Notes under the pieces: model-generated
Seen by the model: only the letters and a program-made list of their open reading frames with translations
Database searches by the model: none
Told to the model about the DNA's origin: nothing
DNA from: an uncultured beta proteobacterium
GTDB taxonomy: Bacteria > Pseudomonadota > Gammaproteobacteria > Burkholderiales > Casimicrobiaceae
Assembly: GCA_963734575.1 (NCBI GenBank)
Contig: CAVTHT010000007.1
Span: 160,549-224,548, forward strand
DNA length: 64,000 nt
Reading direction: 5' to 3'
Translations under genes and position numbers: made by a program
Part shown: piece by piece, positions 15,887 through 38,574 of the stretch
How positions within the stretch are numbered: position 1 is the first letter of the stretch
Layout: each line of letters starts with the position of its first letter

Positions 15887-16020
15887 CGCGGGTGACGCAC
15901 GCATGCATGCGTGCACGCGTCCCGACGGCATCGTTCTTGCAAGCTCCATCGTCCGATCCGAGCGTGCACCGCCACCCCGGCGACTGCCGGGCACTTGGGA
16001 AGATGAAGAGGAGCGTGCGT

Positions 16021-16900: not shown

Positions 16901-16940
16901 GTCGCCGGGACGGCGGACGCGAGGTACGCCTTCTCGCGCG

Positions 16941-17150
16941 TTACTCGGCTTCACCTGCCATGCAGGCGAGTTCCTCGGCGATCTCGCGTTCCGCCTGGCC
17001 ATAGCCGGCGGGCGGGATCTCCATGCGCCGGTAGTAGCCGCGGATCATTCGCGGGCCGCGGAAGACCTCTGCCGTGACGCAGCAGGACCCGTCGGTCTCG
17101 GGGACCGCGGCTGCTTCGATGCGCAGCCCATCGCGCTGCAAGGTAATCAT
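16941..17150 (-). CDS. Small hypothetical protein (69 aa).
   Basis: An ORF with a weak RBS, a CC motif and an acidic C-terminus. No family was recognised. Confidence 0.3.
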   Translation of the reverse strand: MITLQRDGLRIEAAAVPETDGSCCVTAEVFRGPRMIRGYYRRMEIPPAGYGQAEREIAEELACMAGEAE

Positions 17151-17353
17151 CGTGTCCGTCCTGGCGGCTCTTGGCGAGGCTTACTTGTACCGCAGGTTTC
17201 GCTGCGCTGCGGTAGGCGCGTGTCGATGATTCGTGTCGGACGTCGCCTACAAGGTGCTCGAACCGGCAGCCTCAGCGCGCGGCCGAGGCGTACTACAATC
17301 CGGACGCATCCCGGCGACGCCGCCGGCGATCGGCCCCTGGAGAAATCGACCTC

Positions 17354-18296
17354 ATGAAGAAATGGATCGCGCTGCTTGCGCTGTGCGTCGTTCCCGCTGT
17401 CTCCGCCGAGACCTGCCCCGACAAGAACATCCTGTACTGGCAGGCGTTTCCGCCGGGCGGCGAATCGGATCTTTCGGCCCGGCACCAGCAGGTCGTCCTC
17501 AAGAAGCACTGCGCGGCGATCGACACCGTCATCCAGTACAAGGCGGGTGCGGGCGGCGGCCTGATGTGGTCGCAGATGAACCAGCTGCCCGGCGATGGCT
17601 ACAACGTGGTCGGCATCAACCTGCCGCACATCGTGTTCCAGCCCATCGAAGGGCCAGGTCCAGTACAAGACCGACGACGTGACACCGGTCTTCTGGTTCC
17701 ACTACACGCCCGACGCGCTCGTGGTGCCCGAGTCGAGCCCGATCAAGACGTTCCAGGATTTCGTGAAGGCGGCCAAGGCGTCTCCCGAGAAGATCTCGCT
17801 CGGTGGATCGGGACTCAATTCCGCCAATCATGCGGCGCACGAGCGCCTCGATGCCGTGTTCGGCGTGAAGACGACCTACGTCCCGTTCAAGGGGACCGGC
17901 GACATGACCACGGCGATCATCGGCGGGCACGTCGATGGGGCGATGTCGTACACCGCGTTCGCGATCAACAACAAGAGCAAGGTGCGCGCACTCGCGGTCG
18001 CGATGGAGAAGCGCCATCCGCTGCTGCCGGACACACCCACGTTCCGTGAGCTCGGCGTCGACTGGGTCGATGGCGCCTACCGCGGGATCGGCGTGCCGAA
18101 GTCGACGCCGCCCGAAGCGCGCAAGCGGCTGTCGGAGCTCTTCGCATCGCTCAACAGCGATCCGGAAATGAAGGAGCTCGCCGCAAAGAGCGGGTTCGAG
18201 CTCATCAGCGTGGGCCTCGACCAGATGGATCCCTTCATGAAGGAGAAGATCAAGCTCTACACCGAGGGGGCGAAGCGCCTCAATCTCGGCAAGTAG
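17354..18296 (+). CDS. Tripartite tricarboxylate transporter substrate-binding protein (TctC/Bug family) with a frameshift at ~17651.
   Basis: Signal peptide MKKWIALLALCVVPAVSA. Bug-family body ..QYKAGAGGGLMW..VVGINLPHIVFQPIEG | QVQYKTDDVTPVFWFH..KGTGDMTTAIIGGHVD..; the frames switch at 'gaagggccagg'. Confidence 0.75.
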
Positions 18297-19597: not shown

Positions 19598-20422
19598 GTG
19601 ATCCTCCGCTTCGTCACCTCATCCGCCCGCCCACCCGCTATCCCTTCCGTGCTTCTCGACTGGCTGCCCGACGCACCGTGGCACGTGCTGGCGCTGCTGC
19701 CCCTGGTGATCCTGATCGCCTACACGGTGTTCGGCGCGACGGGCTTCGGCTCGTCGATCATCGCCGTGCCGGCTCTGGCGCACGCGTTTCCGCTGACTTT
19801 CGCCGTGCCGCTCGTGACCACGCTCGACTGCGCCGCAACCACCACGGCCAGCTACCGGCAGTGGCGCCACGCGCGCTTCGACGAGTTCCGGCGCCTGTTG
19901 CCGGCGCTGCTGCTCGGCATCGTCACGGGCGCGACGCTCCTCGTGCGCCTGCCGCGCGCGCCTGCACTGCTGGCGCTCGGATCCTTCGTCACCGTCTACG
20001 GGGTCTACCTCCTGCTGGGCCCACGCCGGCGCGAGTCCATCCGCGGCTTCTGGGCGGTTCCGATCGGCTTCATTGGCGGGGTCTTCAGCGTGCTCTTCGG
20101 AACCGGCGGTCCGATCTACATGGTCTACCTGACCGCCCGCATCCACGACAAGTCCGAGCTGCGCGCGACCTCGTCGCTCCTGATCACGGTGAGCGTGTTG
20201 CTGCGGATGGCCGTGTTCATCGCATCGGGGCTGCTCATGCAGCGCGGACTGCTCGTGGCCGCCGGGCTCATGGTCCCGGTCATGTTCGCAGGCTACGCGT
20301 GCGGCAACCGATTGCACCACGCCCTGTCGCGCACCGGCGTGATGAAGATGATCGCGGGCCTGCTGATCGCGAACGGGACATTGCTGGTGGCGCGGGCGAT
20401 CTCCAGCCTGCGCGACAGCTGA
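19598..20422 (+). CDS. TSUP family (TauE/SafE) anion exporter.
   Basis: Seven to eight TM helices; FGATGFGSSIIAVPAL and GVFSVLFGTGGPIYMVYL are TSUP repeat signatures. Confidence 0.75.
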   Translation: MILRFVTSSARPPAIPSVLLDWLPDAPWHVLALLPLVILIAYTVFGATGFGSSIIAVPALAHAFPLTFAVPLVTTLDCAATTTASYRQWRHARFDEFRRLLPALLLGIVTGATLLVRLPRAPALLALGSFVTVYGVYLLLGPRRRESIRGFWAVPIGFIGGVFSVLFGTGGPIYMVYLTARIHDKSELRATSSLLITVSVLLRMAVFIASGLLMQRGLLVAAGLMVPVMFAGYACGNRLHHALSRTGVMKMIAGLLIANGTLLVARAISSLRDS

Positions 20423-20494: not shown

Positions 20495-21430
20495 ATGGTC
20501 CATCAAGGCATGACGCTCAACATCTCGGCCGTCGAGCGCGAGACGGGACTCTCCAAGGACGTGCTCCGCATGTGGGAGCGCCGCTACGGCTTCCCTCGGC
20601 CCGGCCGTGACGACAACGGCGAGCGGCAGTACACGCCGACCGACGTCGCCAAGCTGCGCGCGGTGAAGCGGCTGATGGACATCGGCATGCGCCCGGGACG
20701 CCTGATCGAGCGCTCGCTCGACGAGCTGAACGCGCTGGCGGATTCGCGCGCCGAGCCGCGGCGCGAGGCGGTGGCCCCCGCGCTGGAGCGCGACGTCATC
20801 GGCCTCCTGCAGAACCACGACGTCGTGGGCCTCAAGCACGCGCTGGCCAATCTCATCATGCGCCAGGGCGTGCAGCGCTTCGTTCTCGAGACGGCCACGC
20901 CGCTCAATCGTGCGGTGGGCGACGGCTGGATGCGCGGCGAGCTGCAGATCTTCGAGGAGCACCTCTACACGGAGCAGATGCAGGCCGCGCTGCGCAGTGC
21001 CATCAATGGCTTTCCGCGGACCGACGGCACACCGAAGGTGATCCTCACCACGTTTCCGGGCGAGCAGCACGGCTTGGGGTTGCTGATGGTGGAAGCGGTG
21101 CTCGTCGCCGAAGGCGCGTTCTGCATCTCGCTCGGCGTCGAGACGCCGCTGGAGGAATTGCGCCGCGCCGCGATCGCGCACAAGGCGCACCTCGTTGCGC
21201 TCTCGTTCTCCGCGGGCTTCCCGGTGCGCCAGGCGAGCGACGGTCTTGCCGCGCTGCGTCGCGAGCTGCCGCCCACGACCACGCTGTGGGCGGGCGGCGA
21301 GATGACCCGCCGGATCCGCAAGACGCTGCCCGGGGTGGTGCTCATTCCGGAACTTGCCGCGACCGCGGGCGCGCTGAAGAGCTGGCGCGCGCACTGGGCG
21401 CAGGCAGCCCCGTTCCTCACGGGCGGCTGA
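20495..21430 (+). CDS. MerR-family regulator with a C-terminal cobalamin-binding domain (CarH/LitR-like).
   Basis: N-terminal MerR HTH (LNISAVERETGLSKDVLRMWERRYGFPRP). The C-terminal B12-binding fold has an E-x-H-x-x-G motif (FPGEQHGLGLLMVEAVL). Confidence 0.75.
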   Translation: MVHQGMTLNISAVERETGLSKDVLRMWERRYGFPRPGRDDNGERQYTPTDVAKLRAVKRLMDIGMRPGRLIERSLDELNALADSRAEPRREAVAPALERDVIGLLQNHDVVGLKHALANLIMRQGVQRFVLETATPLNRAVGDGWMRGELQIFEEHLYTEQMQAALRSAINGFPRTDGTPKVILTTFPGEQHGLGLLMVEAVLVAEGAFCISLGVETPLEELRRAAIAHKAHLVALSFSAGFPVRQASDGLAALRRELPPTTTLWAGGEMTRRIRKTLPGVVLIPELAATAGALKSWRAHWAQAAPFLTGG

Positions 21431-21472
21431 CGCGCCGCGCCATGGTGCCGGCGATGCGCGGATGAATCCGGC

Positions 21473-22433
21473 ATGACGACCGCCATCTCGCTCGCGATCG
21501 TGTTCCTCGGCGGGCTCGCGGCGTACCTGGCCTGGGCCGCTTCGGCGTGGCACTCCGGAGCGGATGCCCTGTGGCTCGCCGCGGGCGCGCTGCTGCTCTA
21601 CGGCGCGGTGTTCGGCGTCGTGACCGCCGCGTGGTTCGCCCTCGCATGGGTCTACCGCGTCCAGCGACCACGCGAGGTACAGCTCGGCATGCGCGCCACC
21701 CTGCGCCTCTTCTGGCGTGAATGGCTGACGCTCATGGGCTCCGGGCTGCGTATGGGCTTCGGCTGGTGGTTCATGCGCGAGCCCCGACCGCAGCGGGCAG
21801 CGGCGCCGGTGCTGCTCATCCATGGCGTGCTCTGTAACGCGGGCGTCTGGCTCGGTATGCGCGGCGCGCTGCACCGTCTCGGCATGGGTCCGGTGTACAC
21901 GATCACCTACGGCCCGCCGCTCGCGTCCATCGACGAATTCGCGACGCAGCTCGCGCGCAGCATCGAAGCCATCGTCGCCGCCACCGGGGCGCCGCGCGTG
22001 GCGCTCGTTGGCCACAGCATGGGCGGCCTCGTCGCCCGCGCCTACCTGCGCCGCTACGGCAGCGCTGCGCGTCGCGCGCGTGATCACCATCGGCACGCCG
22101 CATCGCGGCAGCGTGCATGCGTGGATGTTCCTCGGGAAAAGCCTCGCCCAGTTGCGGCCGGGCAACGCGTGGCTGCGGGAGCTCAATGACGCCTTGCCGA
22201 ACGACGTTCCGATGGTGTCGATCTGGTCCTGGCACGACTCGATGGTCGCGCCGCAGGATTCGGCCTGTCTCGACGGCGCACGCAACGTCGCCCTCGCCGG
22301 CATCGGTCACAACGCGCTGCTGCGCGAGCCGGAGGTGGCGCGCAGCGTCGTGGCCGCGACGAGCTGCGCGACGGCGCCGTGCCGCGAGCCGCGGACCGTG
22401 GCGGCGCGCTCTACCAGTGAATGCCCTGGGTGA
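21473..22433 (+). CDS. Alpha/beta-hydrolase lipase (LipA/PGAP1-like) with a frameshift at ~22065.
   Basis: N-terminal TM helices; PVLLIHGVLCNAGVW, the nucleophile elbow GHSMGG, then YLRRYGSA | ARVITIGTPHRGS in the next frame. The switch lies in 'cgcgtcgcgcgcgtg'. Confidence 0.7.
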
Positions 22434-24401
22434 GCTGCGCGAAAGCCATCTGCTCGGCGGAGAGCTGCTGTGGCCCTTCGCCTTGCTTGCGGCCTTGTGC
22501 AGCCGGCGAGTCGGGGAACATGTTGTAGGCGGTGTTGAGCAGGATCTGCGTGAGCTTCGGGCGCGATGGCGTGGCAGACCGCACCGAAGATGCCGAGGCG
22601 CGTGGCGATGCGCACGGGCTTGTAGACGATCGCCTCGGCCACGAGGTCCGCCGCCTGCTCGGGCGAGAGTGTCGGCACGTTCTCGTACATCTTCGTCGGC
22701 GCGATCATCGGCGTGCGCACGAGCGGCATGTTGATGGTCGTGAAGTTGATGCCCTTGTCGAGGAACTCCGATGCCGCGCACGCGGCGAACGAATCGAGGG
22801 CGGACTTCGAGGCGACGTAGGCGGAGAAGCGCGGCGCGTTCGACAGCACGCCGATGGACGAGATGTTGATCACGTGCCCGCGGCGCTGCTCGACCATCTT
22901 CGGCATGAACCCCAGGATGAGCCGCACGGCGCCGAAGTAGTTGAGCTGCATCGTGCGCTCGAAGTCGTGGAAGCGGTCGAGCGAGTTCATGATGCCGCGG
23001 CGGATCGAGCGCCCCGCGTTGTTGATGAGGTAGTCGCAGCCGCCGTGCTCGTCCAGCACGCGCGCCACGAGCGCGTCGCAGGACGCGAGGTCGGACAGGT
23101 CCGCGGTGTAGATCCAGGCCTTGCCGCCGAGCTTCTCGATCTCGGCCTTGGTCTCGAGGAGCTTCTCCTCGCCGCGCGCCACGAGGATCACGTGCGCGCC
23201 CGCCTCGGCGAGCCGCAGCGCGGTGGCACGCCCGATGCCCGACGACGAGCCGGTGACCACCGCCACGCGGCCCTTCACGCGCCCCGACAGCGAGCGGTCG
23301 ATGAAGAGGTCCGGATCGAGGTTGCGCTCCCAGTAGTCCCACAGTTTCGCGGCATAGGTCTGCGACGTGCGGCACGCTGATGCCCGAGCCCTTCAGCGCC
23401 TTCATCGCCTCGCGATTGTCGTAGCGCGTCGGCCAGTTGACGAACTGGAACACGTCGCGCGGAATGCCCAGGTCGGTGAGCACCGCTCGCAACATGCGCT
23501 TCACGGGCGACAGCGATCCCAGACCGTAAAGGATCGGCGCCGGGATGAAGCCGAACATGCGCGCGTTGAGGCGCATCGTCATCTGCGGCGCATGCGCGGC
23601 ACGCGCGAAGATGTTGAGCACTTCGCCGATACGGTGTGGTGCGGGATCCGTCAGGTGGAATGTCTTGCCGTCGAGCCCCTTCTTGTGGGCGATGTGGTCG
23701 AGCGCATCGGCGACGAAATCCACCGGCACGATGTTGATGCGCCCGCCTTCGATGCCGATCGTCGGCATCCACTGCGGCAGGGCCTTGCGCAGCTTCTGGA
23801 TGAGCTTGAAGAAGTAGTACGGGCCATCGATCTTGTCGATGTAGCCGGTCTTCGAATGCCCGACGACGAAGCCGGGACGATAGATGCGAAACGGCCGCTG
23901 GCATTCGCGCCGCACGATGCCCTCGGCCTCGTGCTTGGTGCGGAAGTAGGGATGGTCGAGCTCCTCGGCTTCCTCGAACATGTCCTCGCGGAACACGCCT
24001 TCGTAAAGTCCCGCTGCCGCGATGGAGCTCACGTGATGGAAGCAGCCGGCCTGCATGGCTTCGGCGAACTCGACCGCGTGCCGCGTGCCGTCGACGTTCG
24101 CGACCATCTGGTCCTCCGCGCTCGCGGCGAGATCGTAGATCGCCGCGAGATGGAAGAAGTGCCGGACCTTGCCCTTGAGCTTGCGCACGTCGGCATCGGA
24201 CACGCCGAGGCGCGGCCTGGCGAGGTCGCCGATGATCGGCACCACCTGGCGCTCGTCGGCGTTCCAGAACTCGCGCAGCGACGCAAGCTTGTCGAGCGAG
24301 CTCTTGCGCACCAGAACGTAGACGGTTTCCTGCCGCTCCAGCAGTCGTGCGACAAGGAATCGACCGATGAAGCCGGTCGCGCCGGTGACGAAATAGGGCA
24401 T
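22411..24401 (-). CDS. Two-domain fatty acyl-CoA reductase: an N-terminal NAD_binding_4 (male-sterility) domain and a C-terminal Acr1-like SDR. Frameshifts at ~23350 and ~22565.
   Basis: gaggag RBS. N-domain MPYFVTGATGFIGRFLV..HVSSIAA..YFRTKHEAE. Linker ..VADLCRE | LWDYWERNLDPDLFIDRSLSGRVKGRVAVVTGSSSGIGRA (SDR TGxxxGIG) ..NNAG..SAYVASK. The C-terminal tail is restored in a third frame (..ILLNTAYNMFPDSPAAQ..GIHW*). Confidence 0.75.
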
Positions 24402-24548
24402 GGCTCGCTCCTCGATGACGGCGGCGCGACGGTGCGGCGTCGCTCGGCACGGCACGCGCGGATTATACGGGCGCGAGCTTTAGAATGATTCCTCTAACGC
24501 CGCGGCCTACAATGCATCGTGCGCGAGACGTAGACCAAGGAGACCGGC

Positions 24549-25122
24549 ATGCTGAAGAAGGCGAAGGCGGAAGCGACGGCGGGACCGATGGAACAGGCGA
24601 AAGAGCTTTCGCAGTCGGTGCTCAATTCCTCGCACCAGATCTGGCTGGCAGGGCTCGGGGCTTTCGCCCGCGCGCAGCAGGAAGGCATGAAGGTGTTCGA
24701 GACGCTCGTGCAGCAGGGCCAGCAACTCGAATCGCGCACGCGGCAGGCCGCCGCAGACACCGCGACCGCTGCGCGCGGCGCCGCAAGCGCGAAGGCGAAG
24801 GAGATGCAGAAAATGGCCGGTGGAACGTGGGACAAGCTGGAGCAGGTTTTCGAGGACCGCGTCGCGCGGGCGCTGTCGAAGCTCGGCGTCTACACCCAGA
24901 ACGATGTCGAACGGCTGGCGCAGCGCGTCGACGCTCTGAGCGAGGCCGTGAACCGACTGATCAATGCGCAGGGGGGCACACCCGTGGCGGCGCCGAAGCG
25001 CGGCGGATCGTCCACCGCTAAACGGAGTGCCGCGAAGAAGGGCGCGCGGCGCACGACGAGCAAGTCGGCACGGCGCGCCTGCGCGCAAGACGCCACGCGC
25101 GACGAAGCAGGCCGCCAGCTGA
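24549..25122 (+). CDS. Phasin (PhaF/PhaI-like granule-associated protein) with a Lys/Ala-rich histone-like tail. Frameshift at ~25078.
   Basis: Phasin motif SSHQIWLAGLGAFARAQQEG. The tail ..AAPKRGGSSTAKRSAAKKGARRTTSKSARRA | PARKTPRATKQAAS* switches frame in 'cggcgcgcctgcgcgc'. A terminator follows directly. Confidence 0.7.
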
Positions 25123-25146
25123 GCGACAGCACCTGCCACGTGCAAA

Positions 25147-25170
25147 GGCCCGCATCGCGCGGGCCTTTTT
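25147..25170 (+). terminator. Rho-independent terminator after the phasin gene.
   Basis: ggcccgc-atcgc-gcgggcc followed by ttttt. Confidence 0.6.
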
Positions 25171-25188
25171 GCTGGGCGGGAGATCGCG

Positions 25189-25467
25189 TCAGTCGCGGTT
25201 GAGCCGCTCCACCTGCTTGATGTAGTTCTGCATGGCCTCGTCCTTGCTCATTCCCTTGACCTTGGTCCACGCGTCGTACTTCGCGCCACCCACGAAGTCG
25301 AACCCGCCGGGGCGCTCGCCCTTCACGTCGCCGTCGCTCGCCTGCTTGTAGAACGCATAGAGCTTGAGCATCGTGGCGTTGTCGGGTCGCTTCTTCGTCT
25401 GCTTGGCCGCGGCGGCCGCGGCCTCGAACTGCGCTTTGAGATCGGGTTTCTTCGCTGCGGTTGCCAT
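25189..25467 (-). CDS. Acyl-CoA-binding protein (ACBP).
   Basis: ..TMLKLYAFYKQASDGDVKGERPGGFDFVGGAKYDAWTKVKGMSKDEAMQNYI is the ACBP four-helix signature. Confidence 0.85.
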   Translation of the reverse strand: MATAAKKPDLKAQFEAAAAAAKQTKKRPDNATMLKLYAFYKQASDGDVKGERPGGFDFVGGAKYDAWTKVKGMSKDEAMQNYIKQVERLNRD

Positions 25468-25585
25468 GGGGACCTCGGGCTTCGTGCCGCTTCGGGCATC
25501 TGTGCTACTTTAGCGCGAACATCAAAACGTAGCCAATCGCGCTTCCGCGGTTTGGCCCGCCACGCCCAAGGTTCACCTTCGTCCC

Positions 25586-27042
25586 ATGCCCCGGCGCGAA
25601 AAGATATCGGCCGTCGACACCGCCTGGCTGCGCATGGACCGGCCGGGCAATCCGATGATGATCTGCGGCGTGTTCCTGCTGCGCTCCCGCGTCCCGTTGG
25701 CGCGCCTGCGGCGCACGATCGACGAGCGGTTCCTGTGCTTCGGCCGTTTCCGGCAGCGCCCGGTCCAGGAGGCCGGCACGGCGTTCTGGGAAGACGACGG
25801 CACCTTCGACATCCGTCGGCACGTCGTCGAAACCACGCTGCCCGAACCTGCGGGGCAGGTCGAGTTGCAGCGGCTCGTCAGCACACTCGCCGGCACGCCG
25901 CTCGATCCCGACCGGCCCCTGTGGGAGTTTCATGCTCGTGCGCAACTATCAGCGCGGCAGTGCGCTGGTCGCGCGCATGCACCATTGCTACGCCGACGGG
26001 ATCGCGCTGATCCAGGTCGTGCTGTCGATGACCGATGCGGGCCGCAACGGTTCGCCCGCGCTCCCGCCGCCACCACGCCGCGCGTCGCGCGCCGAAGCGA
26101 GCGATGAGCTCAACTGGCTGACCCAGCCGCTCGACGGCGCCATGCGCCTTGCGACGAAGGTCGGCACCACGCTCGTCGAGAAGGGGGTCGAGCTCTGGGT
26201 CAACCCGCTCAAGGCCATCGATCTCGCACAGCAGGGCGGCGCCTTCGCGCGCGAGATCGCGAACCTCGCGCTGATGGGCGAAGACTCGCCGACGCGCTTC
26301 AAGTCCGTGCCGCGCGGGGAAAAGCACGTCGCCTGGGCGGAGCCCCTCGACCTCGACGAGGTGAAGGCGATCGGCAGGGCACTGGGCGCGTCGGTGAACG
26401 ATGTGCTCATATCGTGTGCCGTCGGCGCGCTGGGCGACTATCTGCGCAGCCGCAAGGATCCCGTGCGACGGGGTGATGATGCGCGCGCTGGTGCCGGTCA
26501 ACCTGCGCCCGCTGGCCCATGCGTACCGGCTCGGCAACCAGTTCGGCCTCGTGTTCCTCGATCTTCCCCTGGGGCTGCGCAATCCGGTCGAGCGGCTCTA
26601 TGCGGTGCGCGCCAACATGCGCGCGCTGAAGGACTCCTACCAGCCGGTGCTCACGCTCGGTTTGCTCGCGGCCGTGGGTGCCGGACCGAAGCTGCTGCAG
26701 GACCAGCTCCTCGAAACGCTGGCCAGGAATGCGACGGCCGTGATGACCAACGTGCCGGGACCGCAGCAGGAGCTCCATCTCGCCGGCAGCGCCGTCGACA
26801 CGATGATGTTCTGGGTTCCGCAATCCGGCAACATCGGCATGGGCGCGTCGATCATCTCCTACAACGGCCGCGTGCAGTTCGGACTCATCACGGATCGCGA
26901 GATCTGCCCGGAACCCGAGCGCATCGCCGCCGGCTTCAAGCGCGCATTCGATGCGCTGGTGCTGACGACGCTGATGGCACCATGGCCGTGGGAAGGTGAC
27001 CTCGATCCGGCGCTGGCCGCCGCTGCCGTCGGCGCGCACTGA
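25586..27042 (+). CDS. Wax ester synthase/acyl-CoA:diacylglycerol acyltransferase (WS/DGAT) with frameshifts at ~25932 and ~26460.
   Basis: N-terminus DTAWLRMDRPGNPMMICGVFLL. The catalytic HHxxxDG is present as MHHCYADG in a second frame. The C-terminus ..MRALVPVNLRP..AVMTNVPGP..ISYNGRVQFGLITD is in a third frame. Confidence 0.8.
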
Positions 27043-27837
27043 CGCCGCCGCGACGCGCTCAGCTCGAGCTCGGCGCGCGCGTGCTCGACGTCGAGCCGCT
27101 CCATCGCATCCATCGGCCGGCATTCGCTCGCAGCGCGGTAGAGCTTCTCGGCCTCGGCGAGGCGGCTCTTGCCGAACAGCAGCAGGAGGCCGTTGCCGTA
27201 TTCGGAGCGCGCGATTGCCGAATCCGGGTGCAGCTTCATCGCCGTCTCGTAGTGCTCGAGGGCAGCGTCCTTCTTGGCACCGTACGTCATGCCGCCGACG
27301 AGCGCACCGACCTTCGCGATCACTTCGGCCTGATAGGCGCCGTACGCGGTGTGCGCCTCCGCATGCTTGGGCTGCAGCGCGAGCGCCGTCGCGAGCGCGT
27401 CCTTGATCTTGCCGCCGAAGCCTTGCGCCAGCGCTTTCGCGACCGAGATCCCCTGGCCATAGCGGCCCAGGTTGAAGGCGTAGAGGTAGTGCGCGTTGGC
27501 GTCCTTGGGCGCCTCCGTGCGGCGGGCGTCCGCCCACTGTGCGGCCTCCTCGAACAGGGCGAGGCTGGTCTTCTCGTTCTTCTCCACGTAGTGCGCGTAG
27601 ATGCCCTGCGCCTTGATCGCGGCGTTCGTCGCGGCGCCGCCGGCTTTCCTCCCGTGCTCGACCGCGGCCGCGAATTCACCCGCATGGAAGAGGCGCCACG
27701 CATCGAGCGCGCCGGCGTTCTTCGGCAGCGGCTCGCAGTCGCCGCGGTGCAACCGTGCCCAGTGCTTCTTCAGCCCAGCAGGATCGTAGGCGTAGGTCGC
27801 GTCGGCATACGGGAATTTGCGTCCACTTCTTCGTCAT
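26859..27837 (-). CDS. Conserved hypothetical protein. The ends are uncertain: a probable N-terminal frameshift, and the 3' end overlaps WS/DGAT.
   Basis: The ATG overlaps the TetR stop (ATGA) and gives MTKKWTQIP. It continues in the +1 frame as ..YADATYAYDPAGLKKHWARLHRGDCEPLPKNAG..AIKAQGIYAHYVEKNEKTSLALFEEAAQW..HYETAMKLHPDSAIARSEYGNGLLL. The C-terminal ~60 aa look like read-through junk. Confidence 0.35.
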
Positions 27838-28523
27838 TGCACCACTCCGGCAGTGCCGCGCGAGCGATCTCCGGCGGCGAGGTAGTCGAGCGAGATGCGA
27901 GCGATGAGAGCGCGGGCGGCTCCGGCGAGATGCGGCTCGATCAGCATCAGCACGTGGTAGGCGACGCGATTGAGATCGGTCTCGGCGGCGTCGGGCCGGT
28001 CGGCGTGGCACAGCCGCTCGTACGTCATCGATTGCGTGATGTTCAGCATGGCATTGCGCGCGAGCGCTGCCAGAGCGCCGTCGTCGGCCGCGAGTTCACC
28101 GGCCTCGCGCATGCCGGTGAAGATCGCGCGCATCGTCGCCTCGCCGTCGCGGAGCAGGTGCGCGAACCGGGCGCCGAGTCGCCGCTGGCGCAGCGCCAGA
28201 TCCGTGACGTCGCGGTAGAGGAAGCGGTACGCCTGCATGCGCTCGAGCAGGAGATGGACGAGCAGCCAGAAGTCCTCGACGTCGACGCGACGGCCCTGCG
28301 GCGTGGTGAGCAGCGGCCGCACCTCGGCTTCGAACGCCGCGTACAGCTCGCCCACGATCTCGTCCTTGTTCCGGAAGTGATAGTAGAGATTCCCCGGGCT
28401 GATGTTCATCTCGTTGGCGATGTCCGCGGTGGTGATGCGCGGCTCGCCGAAACGATTGAAGAGGTCGAGGCTCGTTGCCAGGATGCGCTCGCGCGTGCGG
28501 CGAGGACGCTTGCGTTCGGCCAT
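27834..28523 (-). CDS. TetR/AcrR family transcriptional regulator.
   Basis: TRERILATSLDLFNRFGEPRITTADIANEMNISPGNLYYHFRNKDEIV is a TetR HTH. Confidence 0.85.
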   Translation of the reverse strand: MAERKRPRRTRERILATSLDLFNRFGEPRITTADIANEMNISPGNLYYHFRNKDEIVGELYAAFEAEVRPLLTTPQGRRVDVEDFWLLVHLLLERMQAYRFLYRDVTDLALRQRRLGARFAHLLRDGEATMRAIFTGMREAGELAADDGALAALARNAMLNITQSMTYERLCHADRPDAAETDLNRVAYHVLMLIEPHLAGAARALIARISLDYLAAGDRSRGTAGVVQ

Positions 28524-28622
28524 CAGGGCCTTCAGGGGCCTTGCGTTCGGGTGCGCAGAGTCTAGCAGGCACCTCGGCGCGCCGGGAGGGCGCCATGGTC
28601 GCAGCGGTGCCGAATGCGTGCG

Positions 28623-29894
28623 TCAGGCTGCGAGCCGCAGCCAGCGCTCGAGCGCGTCGAGCGTATGCGTGAGATCGCGCGTCGCCTGGCGCACGTCGGC
28701 CCGCGCCGCAGGCGAGGTGCGCAGTGGCCTCACGTCGGACAGCGCATCCTCGATGCGCCGGTGCATCGCGTCCAGACGATCGGTGCGCACCACGATGCCG
28801 TGTCGCGAGAGCACGGGCATGAGCTCGGGCACCCGTGCGAGCAGGCGCTGGCGCGTCTTGGCGAACGCGTGGGCGCAGAGCGTGCGGCGCTGCGCGTAGC
28901 TGAAAATGTTCGCGAAGAACATGTCGGCGTCCTCGCGGTCCGGCTCGAAGAGCACGACATCCGCGTCCGGATATTGCCGGTCGTACTTCTCCATCCCGAC
29001 GCGCATGCGCGAATGGATGATCGCGCGGAAGGTCTGCGACAGAACCAGGGGCAACCCACCCTGGTTCAGCTTCTCCATCGTCAGCCGTCCGCCACGGGTG
29101 GCTTTGCTCGCGTCGAAGGGCACGAGCGGATTGATGCACAGCAGGAGATCGACGCCCTGCTCGAGCGCCACGGAGGCGTGGAGCGTCTTGTTGAGCGCGC
29201 CGTCGACATAGTGCTCGCCGCCGATCTCGACGGGCGGAAACAGGCCAGGCAGCGCCGCGGAGGCCTCGATCGCGCGGGAGATGGGCACCGTGTCGAAGCC
29301 CGGACCGCCGAACGTCACCGAAGCGCCGGAGTCGAGATTCGTCGCGACCAGGAACAGCTTGTGGCGCAGCGCACGGAAGTCGTTGGTGCGTCCCGGCGCG
29401 GCGAACAGGTCGCCGAGGAAGGCATCGATGGCGCCGTTGTCGAAGAGGCCCGTCGGCATCGCGCGCGACAGCATCGACACCGACTCCATCAGGTTGTGAT
29501 GCAGCGGATCCCGCAGGTACTGCCACGTCACGCGTGCGACGAGGCGCGGCAGCGTGAACATCCGCTGCCTGAACTCGCGCAGGGCGGGCCGCAGGAAGAG
29601 CTCCGGAGTGAGCTTCGCGTCGGCGCTGTCGGCGATGAACAGCCGGTACATCTGCGCCGGCGACAGTCCGTTCGCCAACGCTGCCGCAACGAAGCTGCCC
29701 GACGACACGCCGACATAGACGTCGAGCTCGTTGAACGCGATGCCCTCGAGCGAGTCGCTCAGCGCCAGCAGCGCGCCGACCTCGTAGATGCCGCCCAGCG
29801 GACCGCCGCCCGCCAGAGCGAGACCGACGCGCGATGATGCAGCGCCTCGGGCGCGCGACGATGCTGCGCGCCCGATCACCCTCGTCTCCCGCAT
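28623..29894 (-). CDS. Patatin-like phospholipase/lipase.
   Basis: GLALAGGGPLGGIYEVGAL (oxyanion hole), GVSSGS (GxSxG) and YVDGAL (catalytic Asp). Confidence 0.8.
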   Translation of the reverse strand: MRETRVIGRAASSRARGAASSRVGLALAGGGPLGGIYEVGALLALSDSLEGIAFNELDVYVGVSSGSFVAAALANGLSPAQMYRLFIADSADAKLTPELFLRPALREFRQRMFTLPRLVARVTWQYLRDPLHHNLMESVSMLSRAMPTGLFDNGAIDAFLGDLFAAPGRTNDFRALRHKLFLVATNLDSGASVTFGGPGFDTVPISRAIEASAALPGLFPPVEIGGEHYVDGALNKTLHASVALEQGVDLLLCINPLVPFDASKATRGGRLTMEKLNQGGLPLVLSQTFRAIIHSRMRVGMEKYDRQYPDADVVLFEPDREDADMFFANIFSYAQRRTLCAHAFAKTRQRLLARVPELMPVLSRHGIVVRTDRLDAMHRRIEDALSDVRPLRTSPAARADVRQATRDLTHTLDALERWLRLAA

Positions 29895-29924
29895 GCGTGT
29901 GCCGTCGCGATCAGCGACACCCGC

Positions 29925-30392
29925 TTACGCGCGGGCTGCAGTGCGCTTCTTCGCGCGGGTCTTGCTGGTGGCGCGCTTGGCCGGCCCCTTGGTTGCACGC
30001 TTCGCGACGGCCTTGCGACGCTTCGCAGCGGCGGCAGTCGTGGGAAGCGCGACCTTTGGCAGCGAACGCGGCAGGGTTTCCTTGACGAACAGCGTGGCCG
30101 AATCGGCCGCCTGGCGCACGGTGCTTTGCACGGTGGCGCGGGTTTGCTTCCACAACGCGTTGGCTCGGGTCATGGACGCTTCGACCTGGTCGCCGACGTA
30201 ACGGATGGCGCGCGACTCGACGACCGTGCCTTCCTTCACCAGCGTGCGGAACGTGTTGCCGGCCTCGGCCTGGATCCAGTCGCGGCTGACGACAGCGGCG
30301 CCCAGTCCGGCGAGCCATACCTGGCGCGATGCGGCCAGCGCGGCTCCGGAGAGCTCGGTGGGTTTGTGTTTGAGCGTGGCTTGCAGACGCAT
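29925..30392 (-). CDS. Phasin family protein with a C-terminal Lys/Ala-rich (histone H1-like) tail.
   Basis: aggag RBS; MRLQATLKHKPTELSGAALAASRQVWLAGLGAAVVS (phasin motif) ..PTTAAAAKRRKAVAKRATKGPAKRATSKTRAKKRTAARA. Confidence 0.75.
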   Translation of the reverse strand: MRLQATLKHKPTELSGAALAASRQVWLAGLGAAVVSRDWIQAEAGNTFRTLVKEGTVVESRAIRYVGDQVEASMTRANALWKQTRATVQSTVRQAADSATLFVKETLPRSLPKVALPTTAAAAKRRKAVAKRATKGPAKRATSKTRAKKRTAARA

Positions 30393-30471
30393 TTTGTACT
30401 CCTGCGGTGATGAGAGGCTCGCTTTGCCGGCGAGTGAACTCACTCTACGCCGCACCGTTAGAGCAAACACC

Positions 30472-32085
30472 CTAATCGTGCAGCGGGCGCATCGTCCGCG
30501 CGAGGCCATCCGCGAGGCGTGCGCAGATGCCGTAGATCGAGAGCTGCGGATTGGCGCCCACGGAGGTCGGGAAGAGCGATCCGTCCATCACGTACAGGTT
30601 CGTCGCATGATGATGCCGACCGTGCAGGTCCACGACCGCGTGCGCCGGGTCGGGTCCGAGTGCGCATCCGCCCATCACGTGCGCGCTCACCACCGGCGTG
30701 TGCAATGGTGCGAGTGCAAAGGCGGCGATGCCCGTGCGCGCGTCGGACCACGTGCGAAAGGCGATGCCTTCTCCGTGCACCGGCATGACGCTCATCGCGC
30801 CCGCAGCGAACTGGATCTCGGCCATGCTGGCGAAGGCGCGCCGCGCACCCTCCCAGACATACGGGGTGAGCGGATAGTCCAGTACCGGCGTGCCGTCGTC
30901 GCGCAGACGGACAATGCCGCCGGCGCTTTCCGGATGGAACCCGTCGCGCAGCAATGCGAGCAGCACTTGCATGCGCGGCAGCTGGCGCATCCACGCTGCG
31001 TGTGCCGCGCCGTGATTGGGCAGGGTGATCGCGGCGAGCACCGGATGCACGGGAGGCGCTTCCAGCTTGTAGCCCATGGGTCCATCGAGGGCGACGCTGT
31101 CGAGGAAGTGATCGGTGTAGATGGACTGCGGGGCGCCGGCGTACGCCGCGACGGTGTCGCGCATCAGCGCTGCGGACACGACCACCGGGTGCAGGAAGGT
31201 GCGCTTGCCGACGAGACCGTGGGGATCCGGCAACGCACTGCGCAGCAGCAGCGCAGGCGTGCCCATCGCGCCTGCCGCACTGACGAAGGCCTGCGCATGC
31301 ACGGTGATGCGACGCTGCGTCGGCCTCACGCCCGCCGCGTCCAGTGCCACGCAATGCAGCGCGACCACGCGGTCGCCGCGTGCTTCCAGGCGCTGCGCGC
31401 GGGTGCGCGTGAGCAGGGTGGCCCCGCGCTCGAGCGCTGCGGGAATCGTGGTGACCAGCATGGACTGCTTGGCATTGACGGGGCAGCCCACGCCGCAATA
31501 GCCGAGGTCGAGGCAACCCTTGACGTTGCGCGCGATGGATGCCGTCGGGATCCCCAAGGCGGACGCGCCGCGCGCGAGGACACTGTTGTTCTCGTTGGGT
31601 GTGGCGCTCCACGGTCCGATGGCGAGGCGCGCCTCCATCCGCTCGAACCAGGGTGCGAGCTCTGCAGTCCCGTACCCACGTACGCCATGGATGCGGGCCC
31701 AGTGCTCGAGGGTCCGCGGCGGCGTGCGGAAGGAGCTCGTCCAGTTGACGGTCGTCCCGCCGCCGACGCAACGCCCCTGCAAAATGTTGATCGCCTTGTC
31801 CGCGGTCTTGCGCGCGGCCGATTCCTGGTACAGGTCGGGATAGGCCTCCGCTTCGAGCATGCGGAAGTCGGCGGTGCTGCGCAGCGGCCCTTCCTCGATC
31901 AGCACCACCTTGAGGCCGCGCTCGCTCAGGATTTCCGCGGCGGTGCCGCCGCCCGCACCTGTGCCGACGATCGCGACATCGCATTCCAGCGTGAGATCGG
32001 CGCCGCCCGCGCTGGCATCGACGACGTTCCACCGCGACGCAGCGTCGCGATAGGCATCGGGGGCAGCGCGGTTGATGGCGATCAT
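30472..32085 (-). CDS. GMC family FAD-dependent oxidoreductase, large subunit.
   Basis: CDVAIVGTGAGGGTAAEILSERGLKVVLIEEG (FAD-binding GxGxxG) and the C-terminal GMC signature ..HVMGGCALG..NLYVMDGSLFPTSVGANP. The start overlaps the small-subunit stop (ATGA). Confidence 0.85.
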   Translation of the reverse strand: MIAINRAAPDAYRDAASRWNVVDASAGGADLTLECDVAIVGTGAGGGTAAEILSERGLKVVLIEEGPLRSTADFRMLEAEAYPDLYQESAARKTADKAINILQGRCVGGGTTVNWTSSFRTPPRTLEHWARIHGVRGYGTAELAPWFERMEARLAIGPWSATPNENNSVLARGASALGIPTASIARNVKGCLDLGYCGVGCPVNAKQSMLVTTIPAALERGATLLTRTRAQRLEARGDRVVALHCVALDAAGVRPTQRRITVHAQAFVSAAGAMGTPALLLRSALPDPHGLVGKRTFLHPVVVSAALMRDTVAAYAGAPQSIYTDHFLDSVALDGPMGYKLEAPPVHPVLAAITLPNHGAAHAAWMRQLPRMQVLLALLRDGFHPESAGGIVRLRDDGTPVLDYPLTPYVWEGARRAFASMAEIQFAAGAMSVMPVHGEGIAFRTWSDARTGIAAFALAPLHTPVVSAHVMGGCALGPDPAHAVVDLHGRHHHATNLYVMDGSLFPTSVGANPQLSIYGICARLADGLARTMRPLHD

Positions 32086-32624
32086 GACGGCAGCTCCGGC
32101 GGTCCCGGATACCCGATGCCGGCCCACGATCCGGGGGCCGCGTACCACGCCGCGAGCACCAGCTGATGCAGGGCGTCGTAGGCGCTGCGACGCAGGTCGA
32201 TGCGGCTCGTGCGCCAGCGCGCGAGCACCGCAGCGACCTCGTCATGCGATGCGTCACTCCACGGTTGCGTCAATCCGGCGAAGGCGAGGCGCGTCGGCGG
32301 CCACGCGAGAATGGTGAAGAGCTGCGCGAGCTCGTCCTGCGCCGTGGGCGGCAGGCCCGCGATGGCCGCGCGAACGTTGCCCACCGTGCCCTGAACACTT
32401 GCACGGCGATCGGCCGGGGCGGCAGGCAGTGCACCGTCGAGCAGCACCGGCACGATGGCTTCCAGGATCGGGGTGGCGTCGGCGGCGAGCACCGTGGACA
32501 CGCCGTGCCCGCCGAGCGAACCGCGCAGGAACCACGCGCCGGCGAGCACGGCCGATCCGGCGAGTCCGGTGATCAGGAAGGTGCGGCGCGTCAGCATCGG
32601 GATGGCGCACCGTTCCACCGGCAC
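32082..32624 (-). CDS. Twin-arginine (Tat) signal small subunit of the GMC oxidoreductase (gluconate-2-dehydrogenase subunit-3-like).
   Basis: MLTRRTFLITGLAGSAVLAGA is a Tat signal. It is translationally coupled to the GMC large subunit. The start may be the internal ATG at 32597. Confidence 0.65.
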   Translation of the reverse strand: MPVERCAIPMLTRRTFLITGLAGSAVLAGAWFLRGSLGGHGVSTVLAADATPILEAIVPVLLDGALPAAPADRRASVQGTVGNVRAAIAGLPPTAQDELAQLFTILAWPPTRLAFAGLTQPWSDASHDEVAAVLARWRTSRIDLRRSAYDALHQLVLAAWYAAPGSWAGIGYPGPPELPS

Positions 32625-32723
32625 GCTCCTGCAATCTAGCCGCAGCGTTTAGATGAAACAACCTAAATCGGCGCGGCATCCTGGCAACATGGCTGCGCGA
32701 TAGACTCGCGCCTGCCTCTTCAT

Positions 32724-33473
32724 ATGATCAGCATGGCCTCGATTCCGACGCACGCACCCCATCACGCCGCACATGCCGCGTTGCAGGAGCAGCTCGCAAG
32801 GGTCGCGCGGCTGCATGCGCTGCGCCGCGACCAGCCCGCGCTCGCTGCCGCGCTCGACGGCATCGCCCGGTGGCAGGCCCGGCGACTGCGCCAGACCTAT
32901 GCGGATCTGGCGGCGCAGCCGCGCTACGCTGCCGCGATCACGTTCTTCGAGAACGATCTCTACGGCAGCGCGGATTTCGCGCGCCGCGATTCCGATCTCG
33001 CGCGCGTCGTGCCGATCATGGTGCGGATGCTGCCGGAGCGTGTCATCCATACCGTCGCGCACGCGGTGGAGCTCAACGCGCTGTCGCACGAGCTCGACAC
33101 GATGCTGGCACGCGAGCTGCCGCGCACGGAGGGCTTCACCGTGGCCGAGTATTGCCAGGCGTATCGCGCCATGGGTCGGCGCGGCGAGCGGGAGCGCCAG
33201 ATCACGCTCATCGGCGAGGTCGGCGCCGCACTCGAGAGTCACGTGCGCAAGCCGCTCGTGCGCACCGCGCTCTCGATGATGCGCCGCCCGGCGCATCTCG
33301 CCGGGTTCGGCGCGCTGCACGATTTCCTGGAGCGCGGCTTCGGCTCGTTCCGGTCGATGGACGGCGCGCAGGAATTCCTCGCGACGATCGGAAGCCGCGA
33401 GATGGCGCTGCTGGAGCGCATCTTCGCGGGGGACGATGCGCCATTCCCGGAGCCGCCGCGCCCCGCCGTCTGA
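32724..33473 (+). CDS. Conserved hypothetical protein (249 aa).
   Basis: A full-length ORF with coding-like composition and an ITFFENDLYGSADF motif. It sits between the GMC oxidoreductase and the PHA-system protein. Confidence 0.5.
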   Translation: MISMASIPTHAPHHAAHAALQEQLARVARLHALRRDQPALAAALDGIARWQARRLRQTYADLAAQPRYAAAITFFENDLYGSADFARRDSDLARVVPIMVRMLPERVIHTVAHAVELNALSHELDTMLARELPRTEGFTVAEYCQAYRAMGRRGERERQITLIGEVGAALESHVRKPLVRTALSMMRRPAHLAGFGALHDFLERGFGSFRSMDGAQEFLATIGSREMALLERIFAGDDAPFPEPPRPAV

Positions 33474-33489
33474 CGCGGCGTTCGAGGAC

Positions 33490-33777
33490 TCAGGCGACGT
33501 GGTCGCCGAAGCGCTTGTCGAATTCCTTGTGCACTTCCTTCTCGATCGCCGGCCGAAGCGCGGACAGGAGGAAGCCGAGGGTGCAGTCCAGCCGCACGTC
33601 CTGCTTGCCGACGGTGAGCTCGCCGGACAGGCCGGCGCGATGGAAGGCGATGCGGTCGCCGTCCCAGCTGTACTGCAGGTCGAAGCGGGCCCGGAGGTCC
33701 TCCGCGACCTTGCCGGCAGCGATCTTCGCCTTGGCGTGGCTGAGTCCGTGCTTCTTGACGATGGAGAGCGTGGCCAT
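33490..33777 (-). CDS. Polyhydroxyalkanoic acid system protein (PHA_gran_rgn, TIGR02610-like).
   Basis: MATLSIVKKHGLSHAKAKIAAGKVAEDLRARFDLQYSWDGDRIAFHRAGLSGELTVGKQDVRLDCTLGFLLSALRPAIEKEV matches the ~90-aa family (..YRWDGDTLHFERSGVSG.L.VG...V...KLGFLLSAFR..IE). Confidence 0.65.
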   Translation of the reverse strand: MATLSIVKKHGLSHAKAKIAAGKVAEDLRARFDLQYSWDGDRIAFHRAGLSGELTVGKQDVRLDCTLGFLLSALRPAIEKEVHKEFDKRFGDHVA

Positions 33778-33927
33778 GGCGCCGAAGTATACGACCGGTG
33801 CCTGCGGCAAAGGCGCCGCATTGACACGCCGTTGGGTCGGTCGTACGATTCAAACGAACGTTCGACTCACGTCGCTAGATCGCTGTATCCGAACGCGGTT
33901 AGCGTGCCCTCACTTCCTGGGATACCA

Positions 33928-34648
33928 ATGGATGGCAAGGTGCTTTCGTTCGGCGAACGAGGCGCGGCCCTGACCAAGGATCGCATCCTCGATGCGGCCG
34001 AAGCCATGTTCATGGCCCAAGGTTTCGAGGGCACGTCGCTGCGCGAGCTGACGACCGCGGCGAGCGTCAACCTCGCCGCGGTCAACTACCACTTCGGCTC
34101 GAAGGAAGAGCTCTTCGAGGCCGTGCTGCGTCGCCGCCTCGACCCGATGAACCAGGCCCGGGTCGAGCTGCTGCGCCAGTTCGAGGCCGAGTCCGCGCCC
34201 GGCGCCCGTGTCATGCGAGAAGATCCTGACCGCGCTCTTCATCCCCGCGTTGCACCTTGCGCGCGACCCGCTGCGCGGTGGCAGCAACTTCCTGCGCCTC
34301 CTCGGTCGCGCCTACGCCGACCCGGCGCCCTTCATCCGCCAGTTCCTGTCCGACCAGTACGCGACGATGATCGCGCGGTTCAAGGCGGCGTTCGGCCGGG
34401 CTCTGCCCGCGCTGCCGCCGCGCGAGCTGTCGTGGCGGCTGCATTTCATGATGGGTGCGCTTTCCTACACCCTCGCCGGCACCGACGCGCTGCGCATGAT
34501 CGAGGAGCTCGCCCCCGGCGAAGGGGCCAACGACGAGATCCTGCTGCGGCGTCTCGCGCCGTTCCTGCTCGGCGGCCTGACGGCGCCGCTCCCCGAGTTG
34601 TCCGAAGTCACGCGCGCACTCGAGCGCGACGGGCACGCGCGCCCCTGA
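33928..34648 (+). CDS. TetR-family regulator (candidate fatty-acid degradation regulator) with a frameshift at ~34215.
   Basis: TKDRILDAAEAMFMAQGFEGTSLRELTTAASVNLAAVNYHFGSKEELF (HTH) then | KILTALFIPALHLARDPLRGGSNFLRLLGRAYADPAPFIRQF.. in the +1 frame. It lies directly upstream of fadE. Confidence 0.7.
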
Positions 34649-34676
34649 TGCGCGCCTTCACCCAGACGGAGTCCAC

Positions 34677-38555: not shown

Positions 38556-38574
38556 CCGCGTGAAGGAACATGTC

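Follow-up and report, generated by a model that had tools for sequence, protein, structure and literature searches.

Why would an uncultured betaproteobacterium keep a fatty acyl-CoA reductase (FAR), a WS/DGAT enzyme (wax synthase/diacylglycerol acyltransferase), an acyl-CoA-binding protein (ACBP), two lipases and two phasins side by side, and why are several of these genes broken by frameshifts? The block in question occupies positions 20,495 to 30,392 of a 64,000-nucleotide stretch of contig CAVTHT010000007.1 (hereafter the window), from a member of the Casimicrobiaceae. Our analysis indicates that it is probably a conserved locus for storing and mobilising neutral lipid (wax ester, possibly triacylglycerol, TAG) in an uncultured Casimicrobiaceae-like betaproteobacterium, and that its frameshifts are most likely assembly errors. 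A preliminary description of the window had proposed wax ester storage, and the following functions are present by homology: synthesis (FAR and WS/DGAT), acyl-CoA handling (ACBP), hydrolysis (patatin and alpha/beta-hydrolase) and regulation (TetR). Every gene in its list is real and in its place, as Pfam and NCBIfam confirm for each; it overlooked a CarH/LitR-type regulator (20495-21430) and a gene for a tetratricopeptide repeat (TPR) protein of 258 amino acids (aa). The genes of the block are, in window coordinates:

20495-21430, plus strand: CarH/LitR-like regulator with a MerR helix-turn-helix and B12-binding domains (Pfam MerR_1, B12-binding_2, B12-binding), intact
21473-22433, plus strand: membrane-anchored alpha/beta-hydrolase, lipase class 2 or PGAP1-like (Pfam Abhydrolase_1, Lipase_2, PGAP1; motif GHSMGG)
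24401-22411, minus strand: two-domain FAR of the Maqu_2507 / PRK07201 type (Pfam NAD_binding_4 and adh_short), 662 aa when repaired
24549-25122, plus strand: phasin A, PhaF/PhaI-type, 190 aa when repaired (PF05597, E 1e-41; TIGR01837)
25467-25189, minus strand: ACBP, 92 aa, intact (Pfam ACBP, PF00887, E 3e-28, 98.2 bits, cut-off 28.3)
25586-27042, plus strand: WS/DGAT acyltransferase (WS_DGAT_cat and WS_DGAT_C), 484 aa when repaired
27837-27059, minus strand: TPR protein of the RMD1-3 / PTPIP51 type, 258 aa when repaired, recognised by homologues and fold match
28523-27834, minus strand: TetR-family regulator, 229 aa, intact (TetR_N and a PF13972 C-terminal domain)
29894-28623, minus strand: patatin-like lipase, 423 aa, intact (Pfam PF01734, E 4e-27, 96.1 bits, cut-off 27.7)
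30392-29925, minus strand: phasin B, a divergent PF05597 protein, 155 aa (Pfam E 3e-11, 43.8 bits, cut-off 28.8)

Coding frames were chosen by third-position GC phase and a codon-usage frame plot, and confirmed with Pfam, NCBIfam and tblastn searches using the proteins of a close relative, L001 (ENA ERZ25039554 contig_27829), whose DNA is 82.6% identical to the window. The FAR consists of an N-terminal NAD_binding_4 domain (thioester-reductase-like; E 1e-53) fused to a C-terminal classical short-chain dehydrogenase/reductase (SDR) domain (adh_short, E 7e-50), in a family whose members are about 660 aa long. Once repaired, its 662 aa align end to end with homologues of 662-664 aa, and it is 96% identical to an intact homologue (P0001) that scores 989.6 bits on NF005539/PRK07201 (cut-off 549) over profile positions 1-657 of 657; the Marinobacter orthologues share 64-65% identity with it. 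In translation, the GxxGxxG and YxxxK motifs are intact in both domains. By homology, the enzyme would be an NADPH-dependent reductase that converts acyl-CoA or fatty aldehyde to fatty alcohol. The WS/DGAT is split in the window, with WS_DGAT_cat (PF03007) spread over two frames and WS_DGAT_C (PF06974) lying in a third. The repaired protein scores 375.1 bits on TIGR02946 (cut-off 309.95), and its MHHCYADG fits the HHxxxDG motif; PDB matches include Marinobacter 6CHJ (E 3e-25) and, also distantly, Acinetobacter 7NXG.

The remaining lipid proteins carry the signatures of their families as well. ACBP has the YKQA and KYDAW (K-x-DAW) motifs, while the patatin, 89% identical to its L001 orthologue, has the oxyanion loop GGGPLGG (GGGxxG), the serine motif GVSSG (GxSxG) and DGA. 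The hydrolase has intact orthologues of about 290-300 aa in five related loci (L002, L003, L013, L021 and L027).

A scan of the GTDB species representatives with the FAR yielded 80 loci, or 81 with L001, which were searched by tblastn with all proteins of the locus. The full order, namely MerR-B12 regulator, hydrolase, FAR, phasin A, ACBP, WS/DGAT, TPR, TetR, patatin, phasin B, GMC flavoprotein, Tat subunit, FFLEELY protein and PHA_gran_rgn, is kept in L001-L031, about 30 species-level loci from Casimicrobiaceae, Burkholderiales and 'beta proteobacterium' metagenome-assembled genomes (MAGs). A chance association of these genes is excluded because the order recurs in about 30 species-level genomes, and the identity of these relatives bears out the betaproteobacterial lineage proposed earlier from the gene order. 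Five of these genes, for FAR, ACBP, TetR, phasin and patatin, form a core that is also found in Lysobacterales (including Dokdonella soli, Tahibacter soli and Luteimonas soli), Rhodocyclales and Competibacteraceae, and outside L001-L031 it is often joined by the TPR, FFLEELY and PHA_gran_rgn genes. Among its carriers are the cultured Dokdonella soli JCM 15421, Tahibacter soli BL, Chiayiivirga flava DSM 24163 and Luteimonas soli KCTC 42441. Across the 81 loci, the genes most often found within 10 kb of FAR are those for TetR (62), phasin (60) and ACBP (59), followed by patatin (46), TPR (43) and WS/DGAT (39). Such a compact module had been thought best known from Marinobacter, but in the four Marinobacter loci that were fetched, FAR stands without any of the genes that surround it in the cluster. 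The compact arrangement thus characterises the Beta-/Gammaproteobacteria clade and not Marinobacter.

The biochemical and cell-biological steps that we infer for this locus would begin with the reduction of acyl-CoA, drawn from the adjacent FadD or from de novo synthesis, to fatty alcohol by FAR, and WS/DGAT would join this alcohol with a second acyl-CoA. ACBP could buffer or deliver the acyl-CoA, and the PTPIP51-like TPR protein would be a candidate carrier for a hydrophobic partner. The two basic-tailed PhaF/PhaI-type phasins may coat the hydrophobic inclusion, and possibly tether it. Mobilisation of the stored lipid would fall to the patatin and the membrane-anchored hydrolase, with the products burnt through the beta-oxidation genes next door. 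Regulation would have at least three layers: a 21-nucleotide (nt) element at the phasin and Tat-subunit/GMC genes, a separate ACBP promoter, and the CarH/LitR-type regulator upstream of the hydrolase.

Several points weigh against this reading. We found no experimental work on such clusters in the literature, and no wax-ester evidence from any organism that carries one. The WS/DGAT is so far from characterised enzymes (E 3e-25 to 6CHJ) that its preference for alcohol or diacylglycerol is not assignable, and in the Lysobacterales loci it does not lie within 10 kb of FAR. Of at least 16 frameshifts in the window, 9 fall within the biosynthetic core at 21.9-27.9 kb, above the expectation for uniform error. 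Finally, a PF05597 phasin, PHA_gran_rgn and a TetR regulator are also part of the Pseudomonas toolkit for medium-chain-length polyhydroxyalkanoate (mcl-PHA) (PMC7590123). The last two points each feed a rival explanation, and both are weighed below with the evidence that bears on them.

The phasins are the first place where storage of neutral lipid and storage of polyhydroxyalkanoate (PHA) have to be told apart. Phasin A scores 142 bits on its Pfam model (cut-off 28.8) and 102.5 bits on TIGR01837 (cut-off 94.7); phasin B scores 34.4 bits on the latter, below its cut-off. Both proteins end in basic, Lys/Ala/Arg-rich C-terminal tails like that of PhaF, and an orthologue of phasin B is present in 29 loci. 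The two phasin genes had been described as flanking the block. Both PF05597 genes are indeed there, but phasin A sits inside, between FAR and ACBP, and its neighbours are these genes rather than PHA genes. A further protein of a family named after PHA lies to the right of the block:

33777-33490, minus strand: PHA_gran_rgn ('putative polyhydroxyalkanoic acid system protein'), 95 aa (TIGR02610, 79.5 bits, cut-off 40.25; PF09650 in L001)

The promoters of these genes add a second line of evidence. An alignment of 31 FAR-phasin A intergenic regions contains a near-invariant block, nnTAGAGCAAwCAyaCTAAAn. A position weight matrix (PWM) built from this alignment was used to search the window and 1.44 Mb of loci for hits above 15 bits. 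In the 64-kb window it finds only three sites, all within the lipid locus, and a degenerate pattern likewise matches the window 3 times, with 0.00 matches expected. These sites, together with the ACBP promoter recognised in the alignment of the ACBP-WS/DGAT intergenic regions, are:

24478-24498, minus strand: 21-nt element copy 1, GTTAGAGGAATCATTCTAAAG, between FAR and phasin A, a training site of the PWM (36.1 bits)
25502-25536, minus strand: ACBP promoter, TTGGCT, an 18-nt spacer and TAAAGT
30457-30477, plus strand: 21-nt element copy 2, about 75 nt upstream of where phasin B starts (24.9 bits)
32648-32668, plus strand: 21-nt element copy 3, between the Tat-subunit/GMC operon and the divergent FFLEELY gene (18.8 bits)

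Copy 1 is followed, toward phasin A, by a -10-like TACAAT. Copy 2 has the same orientation relative to its gene as copy 1 and has an orthologous phasin B site in 28 loci, and copy 3 has one in 14-16 loci. Over the 1.44 Mb, 52 hits lie upstream of phasin A-type genes, 28 upstream of phasin B and 14-16 in the divergent region between Tat-subunit/GMC and FFLEELY, and 8 have no locus gene nearby. The orientation of the element relative to the downstream gene is constant across loci. Phasin genes of Beta- as well as Gammaproteobacteria have the element beside them, the orthologous sites lying in L001-L036 and in many loci from Gammaproteobacteria. Aligned in gene direction, the three window promoters share TTAGnnTGnTTnCTCTAAC, G-nn-GCGGC and TAnAnT. 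The element is thus a predicted operator that would lie over the -35 region, with a -10 box after it.

Candidates for binding the element are the TetR of the cluster and the phasins themselves. At the Pseudomonas phasin promoters, the operators of the TetR-family regulator PhaD consist of inverted half sites of 6 bp with 8 bp between them, and PhaD is thought to sense a CoA intermediate (PMC7590123). The 21-nt element can be read as 6-8-6, a resemblance to the PhaD operator that we offer as a lead, the comparison being one of geometry alone; the PhaD operator sequence was not found in the literature text. The element was also sought upstream of ACBP/WS-DGAT and of patatin/TetR, and it is absent at both. 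In the ACBP promoter, GCGCTAAAGTAGCA is almost unchanged over 31 species-level loci, and the patatin-TetR spacer has only a -10-like box. With a separate promoter at ACBP and a patatin-TetR spacer that lacks the element, the cluster is not one simple regulon, and the idea of a single TetR-controlled regulon over the whole cluster is unsupported. The conserved block of the ACBP promoter also holds a small palindrome, GCTA-AAG-TAGC, and its conservation goes far beyond the needs of a -10 box. Nothing useful came from a generic scan for promoters and terminators.

These observations bear on the alternative that the phasins, PHA_gran_rgn and TetR serve PHA granules, with FAR and WS/DGAT merely sharing a general carbon-storage island with them. 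The assignments themselves speak for it, since phasin A exceeds the cut-offs of PF05597 and TIGR01837 and PHA_gran_rgn that of TIGR02610, all families defined from PHA clusters, and the mcl-PHA locus of Pseudomonas includes both PhaF/PhaI phasins and PhaD (PMC7590123). The 21-nt element also ties the phasin genes to each other and to the GMC operon, and not to the ACBP/WS-DGAT or patatin/TetR genes, and its copy 1 sits in an intergenic region common to FAR and phasin A. On the other hand, no PhaC or PhaZ domain was found among the scanned open reading frames (ORFs) of the window, where the phasins do not belong to a PHA synthase/depolymerase cluster. A phasin gene lies within about 1.5-3 kb of FAR in 60 of the 81 loci, in three orders, a tighter linkage than that of WS/DGAT. 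Phasins expressed heterologously also bind other hydrophobic inclusions. The tight linkage of phasin and FAR argues against the PHA-granule explanation, which is the main open alternative and which we consider unlikely. From their gene context, the phasins are instead candidates for coating wax-ester bodies rather than PHA granules.

The regulator at the left end of the block raises the question of whether the lipid is stored at all. The CarH-like gene is co-directional with the hydrolase gene and 42 nt upstream of it, and its product, 92% identical to the L001 orthologue, contains in translation WMRGELQIFEEH (Wx9EH) and EQHGLG (ExHxxG). On the NCBIfam CarH model it scores 136.6 bits, below the cut-off of 400, and it is thus not a CarH equivalog. 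The gene adjoins the hydrolase gene in 25 loci, and the pairing suggests light- or B12-controlled lipid remodelling, as judged from these domains and motifs. In some relatives, a gene for a di-iron protein (ExxH twice) lies between the two (L013 13223-14155, L021 13421-14275).

The locus might make fatty alcohols, wax esters or TAG for uses other than storage, such as a barrier against stress, desiccation or light, or membrane remodelling. Three features would fit such a role: the light/B12-type regulator beside the hydrolase in 25 loci, with the di-iron protein added in some relatives; the membrane anchor of the hydrolase; and a WS/DGAT that is bifunctional by family and distant from the characterised enzymes. 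Against this, the coat-type proteins, the cytosolic ACBP and the lipases, with a complete beta-oxidation cluster next to them, make up a classic arrangement for storing and mobilising lipid, and a non-storage use seems to us quite improbable. The storage reading, too, allows for a possible light input to the locus.

The second overlooked gene may supply a lipid carrier. The ATG of the TPR gene overlaps the stop codon of the TetR gene (ATGA, 27834-27837). The same ATGA arrangement recurs between the Tat-subunit and GMC genes (32082-32085), and these stop/start overlaps indicate translational coupling in the minus-strand series. For the TPR protein, more than 6,800 homologues were found, of which the 120 listed are 258-260 aa long and all have a precomputed PF21033 hit. 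The window copy scores 17.3 bits on PF21033, below the cut-off of 26.7. An AlphaFold2 model was made for a homologue, P0121, that is 95% identical to the window protein (pLDDT 91, pTM 0.90). Its best fold match in the PDB is the TPR domain of PTPIP51 (7CC7; E 1.3e-5, TM 0.63/0.71), and another top match is the bacterial sterol transporter 7T1S (TM 0.63/0.70). The PTPIP51/RMD1-3 lipid-transfer domain and 7T1S are thus the best folds for the cluster protein, in line with PF21033 in its homologues, although its sequence identity to both is 16-18% and TPR folds generally look alike. From the model, a lipid-binding protein is a reasonable guess. The nearest solved structure to the adjacent TetR is 3NNR (E 7e-30).

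Are the genes of the block functional? The preliminary description had considered only the reductase to need repair, and WS/DGAT, TPR, hydrolase and phasin A proved to be frameshifted as well. The insertions, several of them placed by DNA alignment with L001, are as follows:

near 22066, plus strand: hydrolase, one +1 frameshift, an inserted T
~23364 and ~22561, minus strand: FAR, two +1 insertions that split it into three frames, repaired by two 1-nt changes
near 25070, plus strand: phasin A, one +1 insertion in the tail; the true stop is at 25120-25122
~25932 and ~26467, plus strand: WS/DGAT, two +1 insertions, the first an inserted A
27821 and ~27062, minus strand: TPR, two +1 insertions, the first an inserted C, the second directly before the stop (GAG[C]TGA)
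34198, plus strand: second TetR, to the right of the block, one frameshift

The whole window has at least 16 breaks of the reading frame, all of them +1 single-base insertions and mostly outside homopolymers, at for example 887-1820, 9884-11969, 15550-18296, 21.9-27.9 kb and 33280-34680, with none in 34.6-47 kb. Read in the direction of transcription, the frame shifts by +1 at every break, and the seven insertions mapped by DNA alignment are all of a single base. After repair, the proteins match the lengths of their families exactly (FAR 662, WS/DGAT 484, TPR 258 and phasin A 190 aa).

If the frameshifts were real, the wax-ester core (lipase, FAR, phasin A, WS/DGAT and TPR) would have been inactivated recently and would be decaying. 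The distribution of the breaks gives this idea some force: 9 of the 10 frameshifts in the 15 kb comparable with L001 fall at 21.9-27.9 kb, exactly the biosynthetic core, and the TetR, patatin, phasin B, GMC, MerR-B12 and TauE genes are intact in the same comparison. Specific decay of the lipid genes was in fact our first suspicion, and it was dropped after split Pfam domains were found in six unrelated genes. Like frameshifts, at least seven of them, hit unrelated genes across the window; affected are the genes for an ECF sigma factor, for an AI-2E transporter, for BrkB (two, giving three frames), for a formate/nitrite transporter, for TctC and for the second TetR. Insertions of +1 only are unlike a natural mutation spectrum, and neither deletions nor premature stop codons caused by substitution occur. 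The ratio of nonsynonymous to synonymous substitution rates (dN/dS) against L001 is 0.05 for FAR and 0.17 for WS/DGAT, which matches the intact neighbours (0.08-0.14), and these genes are under purifying selection. The sister loci, mostly from MFD MAGs, carry the same type of artefact at other positions and in other genes, with four in GMC in L011 and eight across the locus in L031. MFD stands for Microflora Danica, a long-read project. Both TPR insertions are lacking in L001 and in L082, a Logan-assembled relative with 91.7% DNA identity. Smaller clusters of frameshifts occur at 10.7-11.7 and 16.6-17.7 kb, and we attribute the clustering to local consensus quality. Given the unrelated genes that are hit, the uniform +1 insertions, the low dN/dS and the errors elsewhere in sister MAGs, the frameshifts look like consensus errors of a long-read metagenome assembly and not like gene decay, which we regard as very unlikely. 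For high-GC long-read sequence, frame-aware comparison with relatives is needed before pseudogenes are called.

How does the locus compare with known systems? Clusters of this type have been seen before. In Antarctic and Subantarctic sediment metagenomes, Burkholderiales-assigned scaffolds carry a WS/DGAT gene that adjoins ACBP, a MAQU_2507-like SDR and a 'PHA system family protein', with a phasin on one scaffold (PMC10351704, PLoS One 2023). That study treats such scaffold proteins as MAQU_2507 homologues, with about 59% identity to MAQU_2507 (PMC10351704). These scaffolds represent the same cluster type as the window locus; they are short and their neighbours are listed, and our analysis adds the full 13-kb order. 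The cluster type itself is therefore already known, without characterisation. New here are the breadth of conservation (about 30 species and a gammaproteobacterial core), the patatin, the TetR, the shared cis element and the fad context, as well as the PTPIP51-like TPR protein, the CarH-like regulator and our reading of the frameshifts. The earlier remark that wax ester storage is little characterised in this lineage essentially stands, with the qualification that the context of WS/DGAT, ACBP, SDR and phasin had already appeared in that study.

Marinobacter aquaeolei VT8, with the FARs Maqu_2507 and Maqu_2220 and Ma-WS/DGAT (6CHJ), shares the FAR family, the WS/DGAT superfamily and the HHxxxDG motif; in the four Marinobacter loci, however, the FAR lacks the cluster neighbours, and the window WS/DGAT is only remotely similar to 6CHJ. 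With the mcl-PHA locus of Pseudomonas putida (phaC1ZC2D / phaIF), the window shares PF05597 phasins, a basic histone-like tail (PhaF), a TetR-family regulator and PHA_gran_rgn, but it has FAR, WS/DGAT, ACBP and patatin in place of the PHA synthase and depolymerase. This comparison leads to a bolder idea, which we put forward tentatively and regard as doubtful: a widespread clade of soil and sediment Beta- and Gammaproteobacteria may build phasin-coated wax-ester bodies by reusing the mcl-PHA scaffold and regulatory toolkit. From that toolkit would come the PhaF/PhaI-type phasins, whose tails would bind the nucleoid, along with PHA_gran_rgn, a PhaD-like TetR and a 6-8-6 operator; FAR, WS/DGAT, ACBP, the PTPIP51-like TPR protein and patatin would stand in for the PHA synthase and depolymerase. 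In that case the PHA-specific labels of PF05597 and TIGR02610 would be wrong, and the wax-ester bodies of bacteria would possess a coat of their own with a defined genetic basis. Our literature searches found phasin-type coats of proteobacterial wax-ester bodies treated in no paper, and no paper that mentions Casimicrobium or Casimicrobiaceae came up together with lipid or PHA terms.

About 17% of betaproteobacterial soil isolates carry WS/DGAT genes (bioRxiv 10.1101/2024.12.02.626346), and despite this frequency neutral-lipid storage in Betaproteobacteria is essentially uncharacterised. Together with its ~30 syntenic relatives, the locus provides a compact and testable parts list of synthesis enzymes, carriers, coat, lipases, regulators and cis element, which is relevant to the ecology of soil carbon storage and to the engineering of wax-ester production.

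The block is bordered by further genes, most of which belong to the conserved order:

19649-20422, plus strand: TauE, intact, left neighbour of the block
32085-30472, minus strand: GMC flavoprotein (Pfam GMC_oxred_N, GMC_oxred_C)
32597-32082, minus strand: small subunit with a twin-arginine translocation (Tat) signal (MLTRRTFL), 166 aa, in ATGA overlap with the GMC gene
32724-33473, plus strand: FFLEELY-motif protein (DUF8198; NF047641, 245 bits)
33900-50186, plus strand: fad cluster, including the frameshifted second TetR (TetR_C_30) that precedes the fad genes

The Tat subunit and GMC protein look like a periplasmic two-subunit dehydrogenase, judging by the signal and the domains; with regard to substrate, the PDB and NCBIfam gave generic matches only for the GMC protein. 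The FFLEELY gene is present in 30 loci. Together with PHA_gran_rgn it travels with the FAR/phasin core in Beta- and Gammaproteobacteria, and no PHA synthase was found nearby. The fad genes follow the locus directly (34.6-50.2 kb, plus strand) and encode a FadE-type acyl-CoA dehydrogenase, thiolase (FadA), FadB, FadD and FadL, and further a second 3HCDH/ECH protein and another thiolase, then a protein resembling chalcone isomerase (Chalcone_3) and one with DUF6352. The genes for FadE, FadA, FadB, FadD, FadL and others among these span 34.6-48.3 kb.

At 68% G+C, the 64-kb window abounds in long spurious ORFs. Two of them, on the plus strand at 27081-28565 (494 aa) and 28614-29837 (407 aa), were rejected, as they have no Pfam hit and the wrong third-position GC phase. 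Overlong open frames, in the range of 407-850 aa, also occur at 21903-24455 (minus strand) and 30205-32166 (plus strand), antisense to or out of frame with real genes and without a Pfam match; very long ORFs of this kind are typical for DNA of 68% G+C. Farther to the right, at 58509-63001 on the minus strand, glyQ, glyS, a HAD phosphatase gene and a PlsC-type acyltransferase gene follow one another, a housekeeping group unrelated to the lipid locus.

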